Origin: Phyllosticta citribraziliensis
Taxonomy: Eukaryota
NCBI RefSeq assembly: GCF_038025025.1
Contig: NW_027117339.1
Span: 1,922,001-1,986,000, forward strand
Reading direction: 5' to 3'
DNA: 64,000 nucleotides
The number at the start of each line of letters is the position of its first letter. Positions within the stretch are counted from its first letter, which is position 1. The position numbers were made by a program, and so were the translations under genes. Of this stretch, positions 32,801-41,454 are shown piece after piece. Under the pieces are notes generated by a model. The model saw only the letters and a list, made by a program, of their open reading frames with translations, had not been told where the DNA came from and ran no database searches.

Positions 32801-35800
32801 TCTCCCAAATCAAAAAGGCGCTGCCCGGTGAAGGTGCTGGTGTGCAATACTGCACAGCCCTAACTCGCGGTCAATATTCCATAAACTCCTTGTTCGACGT
32901 TGCAGGAAGACTCTTTGTCGCAGACGCCAATGTGGATTTGGCCAGAGTCAACGGCGCGAACTCTCCGAGGCCATCTGTGATTGTGGATTTGCCAAATTAC
33001 GCCTGGAACCACTCCACGAAGTACTGGTATGAAAGCGAAGCGAGCAAAGACTGGAGGAATCGTCTCTTTCCTCACCATGACCTCATTGGCACCAAGACTC
33101 TTGGCACTTCATACCATGCTCCTGTGTGGAAGAAGACTCTTCTAGTTGATGACCTCTCGTGGCTCATGGACCACAAGGTGAGCAATATTTATTGTTATTT
33201 CGTACCAGCAGAAGCTCATACCTAGCAGATGGGTCCTGAAATCATCTTTCCAGCGGCTGGATTTATAGCAATGGCAATTGAGGGTGCTTCTCAAATTTCG
33301 GAAGCCCTCTCTGTCTTTGAGCAGAAGCCTCGTCCTTCGAATCCGACTTACCACGTCCGCAACATCACTTTCCCCAAGGCGCTGGTGTTGGAAGAGGGCG
33401 AAAAGTCAAAGGTCATGCTAAGCATGGCCAGTCGTACCGGCAAGAATGACCCGTGGTTTGATTTCAAGGTTTCCTCCCTCGTTGGCGATGTGTGGTCTGA
33501 GCATTGCCGCGGACTTGTCCGTATCGAAGATTCATTCCACAAGAGTGAGTTTTGGTCCAGGCTTTCAATCGCCTTCCCTTTGTCGATTGCTGACGGTAAA
33601 CAGGTGCTCCACGTCCCGTTTTGGCACCAATCAACCATCCATCTTCGGGCAAACTGTGGTACAAAGCGATGGAGGACGTCGGCTATGGATTTGGCCCTGT
33701 TTTCCAGAAGCATCTGGAGACGGAGTGCACATCTGGCCAGCGCAAGAGTCGATCGCTGGTTGACCTCACCATCCCTCCCAGCGACTATCTTCAGTCGCAC
33801 TACCCCATGCACCCAGCTTGTATAGACGCTTGTCTCCAGACTTGTGCTCCTGCCCTGTGGAAAGGCAACCGTAGCAGTGTCAATGCAGTCCTCATTCCCG
33901 CCATCATCGACGATCTCGAGATATCCTCAGCCGCGGCGTCACCCTCAACCGGCATGTCCGTCGCCTCCGCTTCATATGTCGGGGTTGGTCGGCCAGAAGA
34001 GACAAAGAATTACATGGCAGATGCGACTGTTTACGAGCCAGAATCTGGAGCCTTCCTCTTCCAAGTCCGTGGACTGCGCTTCCACAAGCTTGAGATGACT
34101 GCAGGCTCCCACGCGAATCACAAATTCACGCGACTGGCCTGGAAGCCAGACGTAACTGCAATCACCCAAGAAGGATTGACAAACGTCCAAAATTTTCTCA
34201 AGCCTGGTCCAGATCCGGCTCTGTCTGCAGTCCAAACGATGTTGGATCTTTTCGCGCACAAGATGCCGCACTTGAAGCTTGCTGAGATTGTCTTGATTCC
34301 GAATGACTTTTCAAGTCTGTGGCTCGAGGAGACGAATGCTTCCAGCTCTGTCCTGCGAGAAGCTTGTCGCAAGTATGTGTTTGCGTCGTCCGAGGCAAAA
34401 GCGCTGGTGAATGTTCGCGAGAAATACTCTGGCAAACTTTCTGGAGATCTCCACCTCTTTGACAGCAGCAAGCCTTCGGGTGGGTTACCACTCGATTATG
34501 GTGACTTTGATGTTGTCATTTTGAGAATGGTCAGTCATATCCTCTAATCTAAGACCAAAAAGCTGATGATGATTTCAGAATGACCTTTCACATGGCTTCC
34601 TCAATGCTGTCGCGAAGAGCGCCAGATCTTTGCTTCATGAGGGCGGTCTTGTGCTGCTCGCCGAGTATCATGATGGGGCGCAAGTCTGCGAGAAAAGCCC
34701 TGACTTTGACGTCCCCGCGCTCATGGACACCTGCGGCTTCGAAGACTTGCGATCCATCTCGTGCAACTTCTCAGAGGTGTTGTCCTCTGCCTTTATCGCC
34801 ACAGCAGTCACAAAGTTAATCAACGACTTGACGAAGAAGGAAATCGACCTCGTCCACTTTAGCGCTCCGACTGCGCGGACCCATCAAATCAGAGAATCCC
34901 TGGCCTCGTATGGATGGGAGATTTCGGATCATTCCATTGACTCGGAGCGCTTGGTATTCAACTCCACTGTCGTCGTTGTGGACGAGCTGTCTTCTCCACT
35001 CTTCCCTGCAATTACGGACAATCAATGGGAGGCGTTGAAGAAGTTAGCTGCTAGCGACCGTCAAATTTTGTGGGTAACAGAGGGGTCCCAATTTGAGGTG
35101 ACTCGACCCGAGAAGGCCATGATACATGGGCTCACGCGCACGATAAGAGCTGAGGACCCAAGCGTTCGGATCACCACGCTCGACGTAGAGGAGAGCGCAG
35201 GACGGCACACAGTCCCCACCATCAACAGCGTGCTGCGTGGTCTCAGTAACGAGAATTACCACGCCAACACCGACCACGAACTTGTCGAGCGGAGGGGCAT
35301 GATCTTTATCAGCCGGCTGCTTCCAGATGACCCGGTCAACACTGCTTCCGATGAAGCACTCCATGGCCGGGCACTAGAGGAGTTGAGCCTGCACGATTCC
35401 CCATCTACCGTGCGAATGAGAGCAGAACGACTCGGGACCTTTGAGTCTTTGTGCTACACAGGAATAAATGACAAGGAGCTCCCGCTGGACGACAACATGG
35501 TTGAAGTGGAACTGGAGGCGGCCGGTCTCAACTTCAAGGACCTTGCCGTGACGATGGGCATCGTCCCAGAGAATGAATTCCTGCTCGGTCTGGAAGGAGC
35601 TGGCAGAATCAGGCGCCCCGGAACGACCGCGTATGCAGTGGGAGACCGCGTTCTTGTCTTCGCCAAAGGGACTTTTGCAAACCGCATCATCACGACCAAC
35701 GAGCGAGTCTACCCGATTCCCGAGTCGCTGTCTTTCGAGGAGGCAGCCACGTTGGCCAGTGTCTATCTCGTCTCCCTCTACAGCCTCTACGACCTGGCAA

Positions 35801-37700
35801 ACACTCAGCCTGGCCAGCGCGTCCTCATACACTCGGCCACTGGTGGACTTGGGATAGCTTGTATCCAGATCTGCAAACACATTGGCGCCGAGGTGTTCGC
35901 TACAGCCGGCAGCGAGGAGAAGCGGGAGTTCCTCAGAGAGCAGTTTGGAATCCCAGCGTCAAACATCTTCCACTCCAGGACAACACAGTTCGCTTCGGAA
36001 CTCATGGCGGCAACCAACAATGAAGGTGTCGATGTCATCATCAATTCTTTGACGGGAGAATTGCTCGAAGAGTCTTGGCGCTGCATCAGAGAGGGCGGCA
36101 CCATGGTCGAGCTTGGGAAGAAGGATATGCTCGACCGCAACTATCTTTCCATGGCTCCGTTCGAGCGCAACGCATCATACCGGTGCTTCGACATGGCCCA
36201 TCGACACGTTTCGGACCAGGTCATTGCAAGGTAACGTTGGAAAGTGTCGCGGAGGAAGACATGCTGACCAGCCACAGATTGCTCAAGCAACTCATGCCTC
36301 TGGTCGACGATGGAACGTTCAAGCCAATCACGCCCATCACGACTTTCCCATTCGACGACATCCCGGCTGCGTTCCGCTACATGAGATCAGCCAATCACCA
36401 AGGAAAGATTGTTATCTCCAGCGGAACACGCAAAGATGTCAAAGTGATGGTAAGTCGACGTCACGCACAAATCTTAAATCGATCAGACCTCTGACACGGA
36501 CAGGCTCGCCCTCCCCCACGTGAGCTGAGACTGCGCGGCGATGTGTCGTACCTCTTGGTCGGCGGTCTGAAAGGCCTCTGCGGAAGTCTCGCCATCGAGC
36601 TCGCCAGGAAAGGCGCAAAGCACCTGATACCGCTTGCGCGCAGCGGCTACTCAGATGACATGTCTCAGGCAGCCATCAAAAACATCCAGGCAGAAGGCTG
36701 TGAGGTGCAGCTGATGCAAGGCGATGTCGCCAACATTGAGGATGTGCGGCGCGTCTTCAAGGCGGCCAATTACCCGATTGCTGGGGTAATCCAGGGCGCC
36801 ATGGTTCTCCGCGTACGTATAGGATGCCCTGTCCAACCCCCCAAGACAAAATGAAAAGGCTAATTTTGGCGCGCGCAGGACAAAATATACACGGCCATGA
36901 CTCACCGCGACTTTCACGACGTCATAGGTTGCAAGGTGAAGGGGACGTGGAATCTACACCACGCGGCGCTCGAGGAGAAGCTCAACCTCGACTTCTTCTC
37001 GATGCTGTCCAGCATCTCGGGCGTCGTTGGCCAGCGCGGGCAAGCAAACTACGCTGCGGCCAACGCCTTCCTCGACGCCTTTGCCTGCTACCGCCGCCGC
37101 CTTGGGCTGCAGGCAAACTCGATAGACCTGGGCGCCGTCGAAGAGGTGGGCTACATCAGTCGCAACTCCGACCTCTTGCAGATATTCGACCCCTCGACGT
37201 GGTCGCCCATCAACGAGCCGCTCTTCCACCGCATTGTGCAGTACTCGATCATGCAGCAGATATCGCCGCTCAACCCGGCGAGCGCAGCGCAGCTCATCTC
37301 GGGTATCGCGGTGCCGCTGGGCCCAGAGTCGAGCTTGCTGTCTGACGCCCGCTTCGCTGGGCTCTGCTTCGGCGCGTCTCAGGCAGGCGGTGTGGGGACA
37401 GACGCAAAGGACAAGGATTTGCAGACGCTGCTGCTCCTGGTGCAAAGCGGCGCTGATGCCGCAAGCGTCCTGGAGGCCGCCGTGACGGTCGTCAACCAGC
37501 TGTTTGTGCGCATCCTGCGCCTCGCCGAGCCCATGGAGCCCGCGAAGCCGCTGAGCAGCTACGGACTCGACTCGCTGGCTGCCGTCGAACTGCGCAACGT
37601 CATCAGGAAGGACTTGGGCGCCGAGCTGACGACGTTGGACATTACGAACGCGAGCTCCCTCATTGCGCTGTGCGAAAAGGTTGTTGCGAAGATGCAGTAG
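29885..37700 (+). CDS. Highly reducing iterative type I PKS (KS-AT-DH-degenerate MT-ER-KR-ACP), 12 introns; frameshifted at ~32443 as written (pseudogene or sequence error)
   Basis: KS DTACSGS, HGTGT, KSNLGH; AT GHSSG and [19 protein letters not shown] and [43 protein letters not shown]. All 12 splice junctions restore frame; the only break is ACT CTC C GGA where ACT CTC TCC GGA (TLSG) is expected. Confidence 0.95.
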
Positions 37701-38224: not shown

Positions 38225-39180
38225 TTACTTTGCGTTTCCCGAATCGTCACTGATCGTACTCGTTCCGCCCGCGCGGGACTCGCTCAGCACCTGCGTGCCC
38301 AATACCCGACCTGTCTCGCTGACGAAAATGGCGCTGATAGCTGTGAGGCCCGGGAACGGCGCATAGACGTATTCGAGCTCGTTGACGACCTGGCCGTTGC
38401 GATTCGTGGTGATGTTGAAGCCGTTGTACTGCATGTCGCGGTCGTAGCTACCGACGACTTTGTGGCCGGTGGGGTTGCCGTTATTGTCGAGCGACTGGTC
38501 GACAATGGTGCCGTCTTGGGCCAGGATGCGGTTCGTGTGCTTGTTGCCGCTGTAGTCGTTGACGCTGTACAAGATGTTGTGCACGAGATTATATGAAGAC
38601 TCCAGGCCGCGTGCGGTCAGGTTGTTGGTGCCAGAGGACGAAGATGAGTCGGAAGAGGACCCAGTCAAGCCTCCGACTGTGTGGTTCACCAGATCGCCCA
38701 AATCTTCGCCCAGCGTTGCGATGATGGGGTTCAGGTCGATGGAATCGAGAATGGAGTTCACCATTTCAACGACTCGCGTCAGACGGGCTTCGAGCATGAC
38801 TCTAGCTCTCACATCCTGGATGGTAAGAAAAACGCGGTCGATGGATGCGGTGACGCCGGCGTTGAGTTCGAGCAGATTGAGCACTTGCGCGTCCAGGTTG
38901 ACCTGTAGACCAAACTTAATCTCTGCATTTTCTCCAGGACAAGAGGCGCAACCTTTGCCGAAATATTATCGACTTCTATATCGATTTCTCGAACCGAAAC
39001 AGAGGCATTCAAGAACACGTCGGGCGGAGGATCTGTCGCCGAGATGTTGGTGTTGGTATTCGCCGTCTCGTAGAGGACGTCTTCGGGACTGCCTCTTTCC
39101 TCAAGACGGTAGCCGATATAGCCATCCTGAGCGCATGCCAGCAGAGTGAAGATTGGAAGCAGTAAAAGAGAAGATTTCAT
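38225..39180 (-). CDS. Secreted protein of unknown function (paralogue A), 2 exons
   Basis: Signal peptide MKSSLLLLPIFTLLACA; intron 38903-38952 joins ...VDNISAK to VNLDAQV...; similar along its length to the ORF at 39625. Confidence 0.85.
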
Positions 39181-39624
39181 GTTGCCGGCTCAGACACAGC
39201 GCTTCGCAGGAGCTGTCGTCCACCGATCAAGGAGAGGGGACGGCGGTGGTTAGATACGACATCGCTTAGCTGGTTGCCGGGGATCATGACTGATGATGAG
39301 CTTCGTGACCAAGATTCCTGTATAGCCAAGGGGGCCTTATTGAATCCATGCAGAGGGTGAGCGGATCAATGGCCGCAGGTGGAGAGTGTTGGCAGCGGTC
39401 GAATTAAAGGCATGATTGACCGGGTGACGTTCAAGTTGGGCACTGCGCGCCGGGGCGAGCCGGGGTGCCCGACACAGGCTGGACCGGGCTGTCCCTGACG
39501 GCACTCTCGCATTTCGACGAAATCCAGTTTGGCTTCGCCGGCCTCGAGCCCGGACAAGGGCTTCATTATTGTTATATGGGTCGACGATGCGGTCGCCCTC
39601 CAAGATGGCTCACCCGCCGCCGCC

Positions 39625-40467
39625 ATGTTGTCGAAAATCGTCTTGGTCCTTTGCTTCCTCGTTGCTCTTGCATCCTCTCAAACACCAACCGGCACCTTTA
39701 CGACTCCGCCATCAGTTTCGGCTTCGGTCACGTCCACATACCCGACCGGCTCACCAACCTCCAACACCACCACTTCGGCCCGGCCGACCAGGACTCCGAC
39801 TTCCAACAGCACTGTCCCGGATGTCGTTCTCAAAGTTCCGGAACTCCACGTCGGAAAGATAGAACTGGACGTGGACAACCTTCGCGCCGACATCAATCTC
39901 AATGCGAATGTTGCAAAAATTGTCTCCATCAACGCAGGCGTCGCCGTCAGTGTCGACAAAGTGAACATCACCATCGCCGATGTGGATGCCGAGCTGGAGT
40001 TGGTGGTCCGTCTAGGCCATCTCGTTGATGTCGTCAACCGGGTCTTCGATTCTTTGGATCTAAATCCTCTCCTCATTAACACGCTGAACAACGTAACCTC
40101 GCTCCTGGATGACGTTGTGGGCGAGGTCGAGGGCCTCCTGGGATCCATCACTCGCGGCGACAGCAAACTTTCGTTCCTCATCGACAATCTTGGAAATATT
40201 GTCCAAGAAGTGGCTGGCGTTGCTGGCCAAACTACTAGCACAATTGTCGGAAACTACCTCCAAAACATGACGTACACTGGAGAGCAGAAGGTGCTGCAGG
40301 GCGGCGCAGTTCAAAAGACTTACTCGTACTCACCACTTAATGCTCTGGTGGATATTGTCTTCAACACCGCTGGTCAGATTGTCCGAGCCGTTGTGCAGAA
40401 GAAGGGTCAGGGCGGTACTTCGACGTCGACGTCGGCTCCTACCAGCACGCCCACTGCTCGGAGGTAG
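39625..40467 (+). CDS. Secreted protein of unknown function (paralogue B), intronless
   Basis: Good start context gccgccATG, signal peptide MLSKIVLVLCFLVALASS, S/T-rich linker, then PDVVLKVPELHVGKIELDVDNL...DSLDLNP domain. Confidence 0.88.
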   Translation: MLSKIVLVLCFLVALASSQTPTGTFTTPPSVSASVTSTYPTGSPTSNTTTSARPTRTPTSNSTVPDVVLKVPELHVGKIELDVDNLRADINLNANVAKIVSINAGVAVSVDKVNITIADVDAELELVVRLGHLVDVVNRVFDSLDLNPLLINTLNNVTSLLDDVVGEVEGLLGSITRGDSKLSFLIDNLGNIVQEVAGVAGQTTSTIVGNYLQNMTYTGEQKVLQGGAVQKTYSYSPLNALVDIVFNTAGQIVRAVVQKKGQGGTSTSTSAPTSTPTARR

Positions 40468-41454
40468 TCTGCATGAAGTTGGCGTTCAAGAATTTCCATA
40501 AGTGGTCTCGTAATATTCTGATCTTGATATCTGAGATCGAGAGCAGTTCAGCCTGTAATGTCTCAGCAAACAATCACAATAACTAAAGAGTTGGCTACGA
40601 GTGTAGCGTGGCACATTTCTTCTACTCCCTCGATGCTGTATCATCGTCAGCACATCTTTCAAAAGTGACTGCATCTAGGGAGCAGTTATTCGCTGCCACA
40701 GTTGCGCCTTAGGAGTTATCGTCCACCACTGCAGATAGCCCATTCATGACAGGTGACTAGGGGAATGACGTGCCTCGAACAGTACCAGAGTTCTTCTACT
40801 CCCTCGCGAGCAAGATGGACCAAATCCGAGTCTAAAGTTTGCAGAGAAAGTCAAGCGCTTTGTGGCGATGGCAGCCAACGGTTCAAGAAAGGGAGCGAGA
40901 ACGAAAGTAGGAGCGAGAAAGCGAGGATGTCGACGGCATGCAAGAGAAGGTTGGAAGTTTCTGCAGTGATTACCGATGAACGAAGCGAGACCCTGTCGCA
41001 CCGTTGGTCGAAAACGACTCCAAGGATACAACAACTATCCCTTAAGTCCAGTCTTGAGAGCAGCCCAACCATTTTAAATACGACCGTGTCCTCGATCGAA
41101 TCCCTGGTCCGATTCCATTCACTCCAGAGGACCACAGCTACGCGTCAGCAGCCCAAGTAAACGACGGAAGGAAGCCACGACGCTCAACCACCGACCACCT
41201 CAACCACGGAAGATCCAGCACCCAGGAGAAGTACCTACGGCCCGCCAAACTGCGCTCTCATACATCGAGCGACCTCACATTTTACTTCACCACCGCCCTA
41301 TCAGATAACAGTAAAACAACCCTCCGTACCACGGGAAATGTCACAATAAAGAGAGCACTCATAACTGGAAACAAACCTGGCCACCCGCACCAAAGAAAAG
41401 CTCGCACTGAAGACTGCAAAAGGGCACTCATAAGATTCCGGCCCCAGCAACGAC

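Follow-up and report, generated by a model that had tools for sequence, protein, structure and literature searches.

A conserved head-to-head gene pair for predicted secreted proteins in filamentous ascomycetes, with a module found also in Actinomycetota

Two genes for signal-peptide proteins, here called A and B, stand head to head in a 64,000-nucleotide stretch of the genome of Phyllosticta citribraziliensis (assembly GCF_038025025.1, contig NW_027117339.1, positions 1,922,001 to 1,986,000; hereafter the window). This raised the question of why the two genes are kept together and what their products do. An earlier note, made from the letters alone, had described a pair of divergent secreted paralogues with an unrecognised beta-rich domain and proposed that they are co-expressed subunits of a hetero-oligomer. 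Judged from comparative sequence analysis, A and B form an ancient, obligately linked and divergently transcribed pair, whose order has been kept since before the split of the fungal classes. The earlier picture of conserved, co-regulated partners from an unrecognised family with actinobacterial relatives is supported by our analysis; its argument for the age of the duplication from the introns failed.

A divergent pair kept across fungal classes

A and B are the only members of their family within the window, and their features are as follows.

39180..38225, minus strand: gene A, 301 aa, with one 50-nt intron
38953..39180, minus strand: gene A exon 1, residues 1-76 (signal peptide, short linker and start of the PDV module)
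38903..38952, minus strand: gene A intron, 50 nt, GT..AG, phase 0, after codon 76
38225..38902, minus strand: gene A exon 2 and stop codon, residues 77-301 (225 aa), from the translation, the spliced model and the match to orthologue P0123
38666..39024, minus strand: gene A N-module, about residues 53-155, a predicted PDV...LNP hairpin and two helices, spanning the intron
38270..38593, minus strand: gene A C-terminal domain of eight predicted beta-strands, about residues 180-287
39181..39624, no strand: shared intergenic region, 444 bp, presumed bidirectional promoter
39625..40467, plus strand: gene B, single exon, 280 aa and stop
39625..39813, plus strand: gene B signal peptide (about residues 1-18) and Ser/Thr-rich linker (about 19-63), read from the translation
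39814..40122, plus strand: gene B N-module, residues 64-166, with a predicted amphipathic hairpin (about 66-96 and 99-130) and helices (131-143, 149-164)
40135..40401, plus strand: gene B C-terminal domain of eight predicted beta-strands, residues 171-259, from modelled strands, covariation and alignment to the domain of A

The start codons at 39180 (minus) for A and 39625 for B, with stop codons at 38225-38227 and 40465-40467, place the two genes head to head, so that the arrangement and the 444-bp spacing of the earlier note are exact; every peptide string it quoted is found in the translations. The spliced product of gene A has the same 301-aa length as the Phyllosticta citriasiana orthologue P0123 and agrees with it residue for residue across the splice, exon 2 being 94% identical. 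Contigs from two public runs, X2 and X3, skip exactly the 50-nt intron, X3 coming from a related organism of about 90% likeness to the window. The kinds of runs X1 to X3 are unrecorded and RNA is only a guess, the skip bounded by GT..AG being the pattern expected from a spliced transcript. B is 99% identical to a protein of Phyllosticta citrichinensis, a member of the Botryosphaeriales (Dothideomycetes), in keeping with the origin of the window.

The divergent arrangement recurs well beyond Phyllosticta. Seven named genomes from three classes carry the A and B orthologues under consecutive locus tags.

Diplodia seriata: SLS55_008519/20
Hymenoscyphus fraxineus: HYFRA_00000646/47
Rutstroemia sp.: CJF32_00009736/37
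Hyphodiscus hymeniophilus: D0Z07_4264/65
Icmadophila ericetorum: MMC33_006395/96
Xylographa carneopallida: MMC34_007863/64
Xylographa parallela: MMC32_007701/02

A larger sample came from 80 metagenome loci with B-type genes, 69 of them distinct, which were searched with A and B. An A-type gene on the opposite strand was present upstream of B in all 24 distinct loci with at least 2000 nt of upstream sequence, and the cut end of one in 16 of the 45 shorter loci. All A-type genes located lie on the strand opposite to B and none lies downstream of B in any locus; the spacer is head-to-head in every one of the 40 distinct loci with both genes, with 548-1661 nt (median 848) between the matched parts of A and B. 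The genes that flank the pair in the window, a highly reducing polyketide synthase on one side and proteins without a family on the other, are not conserved in the environmental loci, and the conserved unit is therefore the pair itself.

A and B are paralogous over their full length, as the earlier note had proposed. Blastp aligns the two with 80.5 bits (E 3e-22; 54 of 139 positions identical, 39%), and hhalign of the orthologue alignments, built from 38 B-type and 36 A-type proteins, gives E 1.3e-37 over 213 columns, including the C-terminal matches quoted in that note. Gene A contains an additional, strongly conserved loop with the consensus NILYSVNDYSGNTHTNR, which is not in B. In a tree of the N-module all A-type proteins fall into one clade, with a Shimodaira-Hasegawa-like approximate likelihood ratio (SH-aLRT) support of 99, and the core B-type proteins into another (89), apart from which stand the bacterial and other forms of the module; this was a quick search with unresolved deep branches, and we make no claim from it on the root or on any direction of transfer. 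Each clade is represented in several classes, and identity between A and B is 30-39%, compared with 55-77% between orthologues; the duplication is therefore older than the radiation of the Pezizomycotina. An old duplication had also been read from the different intron structure of the two genes. The difference is real, with one intron in A and none in B, but of 40 environmental A-type genes, a set that still contains duplicates, 38 have no intron at residues 76/77; the intron of A is therefore specific to a lineage, and as a sign of age it was ruled out. The environmental loci L031/L032 and L044 seem to carry A-type introns at other positions.

The family is large and widely distributed. A word-indexed search with B returned 1120 relatives at E<=0.001 and an exhaustive search 1001 cluster representatives, 451 of these at 1e-10 or better, while exon 2 of A gave 591 relatives. 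Among the 120 matches listed for each of A and B, all those with a name are fungal proteins termed 'hypothetical' or 'uncharacterized'. Their named hosts belong to the Dothideomycetes, Leotiomycetes, Lecanoromycetes, Sordariomycetes, Eurotiomycetes (Chaetothyriales) and Orbiliomycetes, with two Mycena species in addition for B; the host class was looked up for four groups, and the remaining hosts we take to belong to the classes given. Saprobes, lichen fungi, nematode trappers and pathogens are all represented, and the orthologue of A in Neurospora crassa is NCU08522. Across the classes, Orbiliomycetes and Mycena included, B retains 57-77% identity, which is unusually strong for a secreted protein. 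The B-type proteins of the two Mycena species (Basidiomycota), P0091 and P0111, are 68-69% identical to B; no basidiomycete was present among the 120 A-type matches listed in either A-type search.

Architecture of the two proteins

Signal-like stretches and glycosylphosphatidylinositol (GPI) tails were called by simple rules across the 38 B and 36 A orthologues. An N-terminal hydrophobic stretch was found in 32 of the B-type and 27 of the A-type proteins, followed by a linker. In B this linker has a median of 47.5 residues and a median Ser+Thr fraction of 0.53; in A it is shorter (median 38.5 residues), with a Ser+Thr fraction of 0.22. Several N-glycosylation sequons are conserved, namely N114 (38/38), N214 (38/38) and N156 (25/38) in B and N72 (36/36), N58 (34/36) and N239 (31/36) in A. 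Each protein has a single cysteine, placed within its signal peptide, so that the mature chains are free of cysteine, as had been noticed from the two sequences, and the median across the orthologues is likewise 0. The hydrophobic C-terminal tail that marks GPI-anchored wall proteins was found in none of the 38 B and none of the 36 A orthologues, and the median net charge is -20.5 for A and -8.5 for B. Taken together, the signal-like N-terminus, the linkers and sequons, the lack of cysteines and of a GPI tail, and the acidity fit soluble or wall-retained secreted glycoproteins.

AlphaFold2 models built from shallow alignments reached a mean predicted local distance difference test score (pLDDT) of 55 for B and 60 for P0123, the orthologue of A. 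The C-terminal domain was modelled confidently (pLDDT about 90) as eight strands in two four-stranded meanders, and the N-module, at a pLDDT of about 50, as a very long hairpin followed by two helices; in P0123 the strands span residues 55-78 and 92-115 and the helices 117-130 and 133-154. To check the hairpin independently of the model we used mean-field covariation over 355 family sequences (effective number 166). Of the top-ranking pairs, in B numbering, 71-124, 75-121, 78-118, 80-116, 87-108, 89-108 and 95-102 line up as a single antiparallel ladder with its centre near residue 98, and the pairs 100-136, 108-140 and 113-152 set the helices against the second arm of the hairpin. The C-terminal pairs 243-258, 218-234 and 176-184 agree with the modelled strands. 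In an alignment of 493 family sequences, hydrophobic and polar positions alternate at 19 of 22 steps along the first arm of the hairpin and at 23 of 31 along the second, each arm having one bulge; the segment that follows has helical periodicity, and the polar face carries many conserved Asp, Asn and Glu residues. The term 'beta-rich' in the earlier note applies only in part, as each protein also has two predicted helices. Each N-module may accordingly be pictured as an amphipathic beta-hairpin of roughly 25+25 residues, with its hydrophobic face covered by the two helices.

Foldseek searches, which were dominated by the C-terminal domain, returned nothing from the PDB at E<=0.001, the weak rows being mainly beta-propellers. 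The top row, a chain of the Yersinia entomophaga holotoxin complex (E 0.046, template modelling (TM) score 0.14), is not significant, and there was no Pfam match to the RHS/YD repeat (PF05593). The C-terminal halves, residues 183-228 and 229-285, align separately, each with one blade of a propeller of the WD40, NHL or a similar type, and the A profile matched the designed Kelch-like SAKe propellers among the PDB sequences at E 1.7e-8, a value that sums weak repeat matches. In the models the C-terminal domain looks like two blade-like meanders built from DxxGxIV hairpins, which we regard as resemblance and not membership. Propellers close a ring of four or more blades within one chain or within an oligomer; each A or B chain has only two such four-stranded meanders, and the WD40, NHL and Kelch repeat profiles of Pfam gave no match at E<=1 for A and B or at E<=10 for the 36 A-type proteins. 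Two-blade lectins of the RSL type, which oligomerise into propellers, are among the nearest counterparts.

No library that we used recognises or describes the A/B family, and as far as these sequence searches reach it is new; its mechanism we can only infer. For B the Pfam matches were all below threshold, the best-known of them being New_glue, which falls in the Ser/Thr-rich linker and scores 19 bits where the cut-off is 31. Neither exon product of A had a Pfam match at E<=1, and no family recurred among the 36 A-type proteins at E<=10. NCBIfam gave nothing near its cut-offs for A or B, and the PDB sequences gave no match for B. We found no catalytic signature, as no family with a known catalytic site was matched in Pfam or NCBIfam, and the protein atlas offered unnamed fungal clusters and no named lead. 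The description of the domain as unrecognised therefore stands, Pfam, NCBIfam, PDB sequences, Foldseek and VIA all being without an assignment. A search of the literature under the locus tags of orthologues, NCU08522 included, which reached the papers but not their supplementary tables, returned no paper on the family, and a general search of abstracts on the Phyllosticta secretome showed nothing on it.

Functional analogues may be seen in hydrophobins and the HsbA-type, PIR and CFEM proteins, fungal wall and surface proteins which, like A and B, are small and secreted, have linkers rich in Ser and Thr, and present an amphipathic surface. Unlike these, they have no PIR repeats, no GPI signal, no Pfam match and no conserved cysteine pattern of the kind found in hydrophobins and CFEM proteins. 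Their conservation is also far above that typical of wall proteins without a GPI anchor.

Relatives in Actinomycetota

The earlier note had mentioned similar PDV-L-V...LNP proteins in Actinobacteria, and such relatives do exist. Among the sequences that we fetched, 51 proteins match the A and B profiles about equally and are neither A-type nor B-type; many of them lack a signal peptide, start with a basic or Gln/Glu-rich stretch and end in tails that are Gly/Ala-rich or made of helical repeats. With B as the query, phmmer matched the bacterial-like representatives at E 1e-19 to 1e-16 (1e-19 to 1e-18 for P0322 and P0337). Four of the 51 proteins, used for a pattern scan across prokaryote genomes, led to 7 loci, all in metagenome-assembled genomes (MAGs) of Actinomycetota, including Streptosporangiaceae, whose genes are 53-74% identical to P0322 and P0337. 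The same scan with the fungal B alignment gave no relative, the bacterial ones surfacing only from the distant representatives.

Of 401 sampled Actinomycetota genomes, 28 gave matches in a profile search, and in 26 of these the N-module was covered (25 of 400 if G321, which is unpublished, is set aside). Two copies of the module lie within 13 kb of each other in 14 of these 26 genomes, typically one long and one short. The conserved columns common to the fungal and bacterial modules are PD, G, N-P and the alternating positions. Beyond the module the bacterial proteins differ: 17 of the 26 contain repeats like those of apolipoproteins A1/A4/E, 3 of them above the cut-off of Pfam, and several of these also have weak phasin or YtxH matches; a C-terminal E3_binding domain (PSBD) is present in 5 of the 26, and 4 carry nothing. 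Among the neighbours in the clusters that we inspected are a ParA-type ATPase and phasin- or apolipoprotein-like proteins that contain several E3_binding domains. Pfam gave no domain over the module in 25 distant relatives, NCBIfam nothing above its cut-off in the bacterial-like ones, and none of the Actinomycetota proteins is characterised in the libraries used.

The Actinomycetota proteins, in which the module reads PDV...RNP, therefore resemble A and B in a homologous N-module of about 100 aa with the same alternation and in the frequent linkage of two copies. They differ in that the forms inspected have no signal peptide and begin with basic or Gln/Glu-rich N-termini, and in their C-terminal parts, which are helical repeats or a PSBD where A and B have a domain of beta-hairpins.

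Two of the bacterial settings deserve a description of their own. Six Actinomycetota genomes of about 3-4.6 Mb (G274, G074, G235, G387, G088 and G044; loci L123-L128) contain a cluster in which a long PDV-module gene is accompanied by a short one. The long copy has the apolipoprotein/phasin-like repeats and the short copy the C-terminal E3_binding domain, and alongside them are proteins with 3-4 tandem E3_binding domains and phasin-like helices and, in some, a ParA-type ATPase. From its sequence content this cluster looks like a system organising some cytoplasmic inclusion, and we know of no description of a cluster of this type. In 3 of the 7 Streptosporangiaceae-type loci (L081, L082 and L086) the PDV-module gene is followed by a membrane protein of about 210-230 aa without a Pfam family, and the next gene, two downstream of the module, encodes an SRPBCC protein of about 350 aa (Polyketide_cyc; a lipid-binding fold).

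Possible roles and surroundings of the pair

What might such a pair do? We tentatively favour, at close to an even chance, the reading that A and B form a co-regulated, non-enzymatic extracellular hetero-complex that binds a surface component; the binding, its site and the ligand are all part of what we infer. The two proteins would be made together from the shared 444-bp promoter and pass through the secretory pathway as acidic, N- and O-glycosylated, cysteine-free products. Their complex would act at the cell wall or hyphal surface and would bind, rather than cleave, a surface component, either a hydrophobic or lipidic interface or a polysaccharide. That both products would be needed together is suggested by the divergent pair in every testable locus and by the strong purifying constraint on both. 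A surface-binding role seems the most economical, because an amphipathic hairpin is combined with bacterial fusions to interface-binding helical repeats. For the physical association of A with B, taken by itself, our estimate falls a little short of one half; a prediction of the A+B complex made without the use of alignments gave an interface score (ipSAE) of 0.01, which speaks neither for nor against binding.

Several observations weigh against this reading. Conserved divergent pairs can reflect shared regulation alone, and the loci were located through B, a sampling that would miss A-type genes without a B neighbour. A k-mer search of 40 spacers revealed no shared promoter motif, only low-complexity or coding-like words. 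Contigs from one run, X2, cover both genes, one being spliced at the intron of A and another spanning the region of B from 39761 to 40695, in line with the co-expression proposed earlier, but contigs are unable to rank or correlate expression; X2 shows no contig over 39365-39697, a gap from which we conclude nothing. Both proteins are net acidic, giving no obvious charge complementarity, and the confidence of the N-module model is low (pLDDT about 50). The link to lipids or hydrophobic surfaces comes by analogy from the fusions and gene neighbours seen in bacteria, where the proteins have no signal peptide and are cytoplasmic, and amphipathic-helix repeats of this kind are known also from desiccation and stress proteins. 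Two orthologues carry the UniRef label 'cell wall protein' and the Echria macrotheca orthologue of A, P0206, is called 'Lipid-binding serum glycoprotein N-terminal domain-containing protein', but such database names are untested, and they appear on 3 of the roughly 240 homologues listed.

If shared regulation were the whole explanation, A and B could be independent paralogues that are merely made at the same time, for example wall-associated binders with different ligands, the loop of A giving it a specificity of its own. Shared regulation explains the synteny equally well, and the insertion conserved in A only and the acidity of both proteins agree with it. We nevertheless consider independence the less likely of the two readings, since head-to-head order in 24 of 24 loci across classes together with 57-77% identity exceeds the usual regulatory constraint, and the module proteins of Actinomycetota also tend to occur as linked long and short copies. 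The same conservation, in extracellular proteins, is what would be expected of core wall enzymes, and invariant polar residues are available in both chains (D66, N103, N114, R129, D187 and N188 in B; E114, Y188, H198 and E284 in A). A novel wall-active enzyme pair, remodelling or transglycosylating glycans with catalytic residues among these invariant Asp, Asn, Glu, His and Tyr positions, is to our mind very unlikely, however; no enzyme family was matched by Pfam, NCBIfam or fold, several of the invariant Asn are sequon positions, and in the bacterial relatives the fusion partners are amphipathic repeats of a non-catalytic kind.

Membrane-directed activities fare no better. The strict alternation on two long arms, in paired secreted proteins without cysteine, is what a two-component beta-pore would need, with the hairpins of several A and B subunits swinging out to form a barrel in a target membrane. 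Yet the pair is near-universal and slowly evolving in saprobes, lichen fungi, nematode trappers and pathogens, a distribution unlike that of a toxin, the polar face of the hairpin is strongly charged, and the fold searches, in which the C-terminal domain dominated, matched no fold of the beta-pore-forming toxins. Covariation also sets the helices against the hairpin, although a rearrangement would be beyond its reach, and altogether we give a pore or other membrane-active agent only a slender chance. Slighter still is the case for a lipid-transfer tube of the BPI/LBP/CETP (TULIP) type. The UniRef name of P0206 points this way, and TULIP proteins share with A and B an extracellular location, long curved or twisted strands and amphipathic helices. 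The LBP_BPI_CETP profile (PF01273), however, matched 0 of the 36 A-family proteins at E<=10 and neither B nor the exon products of A at E<=1, the fold searches, dominated by the C-terminal domain, gave no convincing match, and the order of secondary structure in TULIP domains differs from that in A and B. The TULIP fold itself, a long helix wrapped by a strongly twisted sheet around a lipid pocket, would have to lie in the N-module, for which the model reaches a pLDDT of about 50.

A wider reading, which we regard as distinctly unlikely, joins the fungal and bacterial forms. The PDV...LNP module would be an ancient self-associating hairpin that works in paralogue pairs, as an inclusion coat in bacteria and as a hetero-oligomeric propeller-like head in fungi. 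In Actinomycetota the long apolipoprotein/phasin-like and short PSBD-tailed copies would coat or organise a hydrophobic inclusion in the cytoplasm; in fungi A and B would pair through the module, and their two-blade domains would join as a lectin or a binder of lipid interfaces. Were this so, the pair would be a universal and unnoticed component of the cell surface of filamentous ascomycetes. The surface-binding hetero-complex that we favour would likewise, if universal in these fungi, plant pathogens, lichen fungi and saprobes among them, supply a missing piece of the fungal surface. The module is a new domain common to fungi and Actinomycetota for resources of the Pfam type, and the possible link on the bacterial side to proteins that coat hydrophobic inclusions could guide tests of ligands. 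For the family as a whole, NCU08522 of Neurospora crassa offers a tractable entry point.

The surroundings of the pair in the window give two further observations. The highly reducing polyketide synthase (PS-DH, enoylreductase (ER)-type ADH_zinc_N, ketoreductase (KR) and a C-terminal acyl carrier protein (ACP)) lies at 33600-37700 on the plus strand and ends near the 3' end of A. Membership of A and B in a polyketide synthase cluster was ruled out, only one such frame being matched, in one of the 80 environmental loci (L004). On the other side, just downstream of B, a 13-kb contig from run X1 is collinear with the window, the intron of A included, yet is without 40552-40613 (62 nt, CT..AC) and 40636-40773 (138 nt, CT..GC), a 22-nt piece being left between the two gaps. 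Read on the minus strand the ends of these gaps are GT..AG and GC..AG, and they may reflect either a spliced minus-strand transcript or a structural difference between strains.

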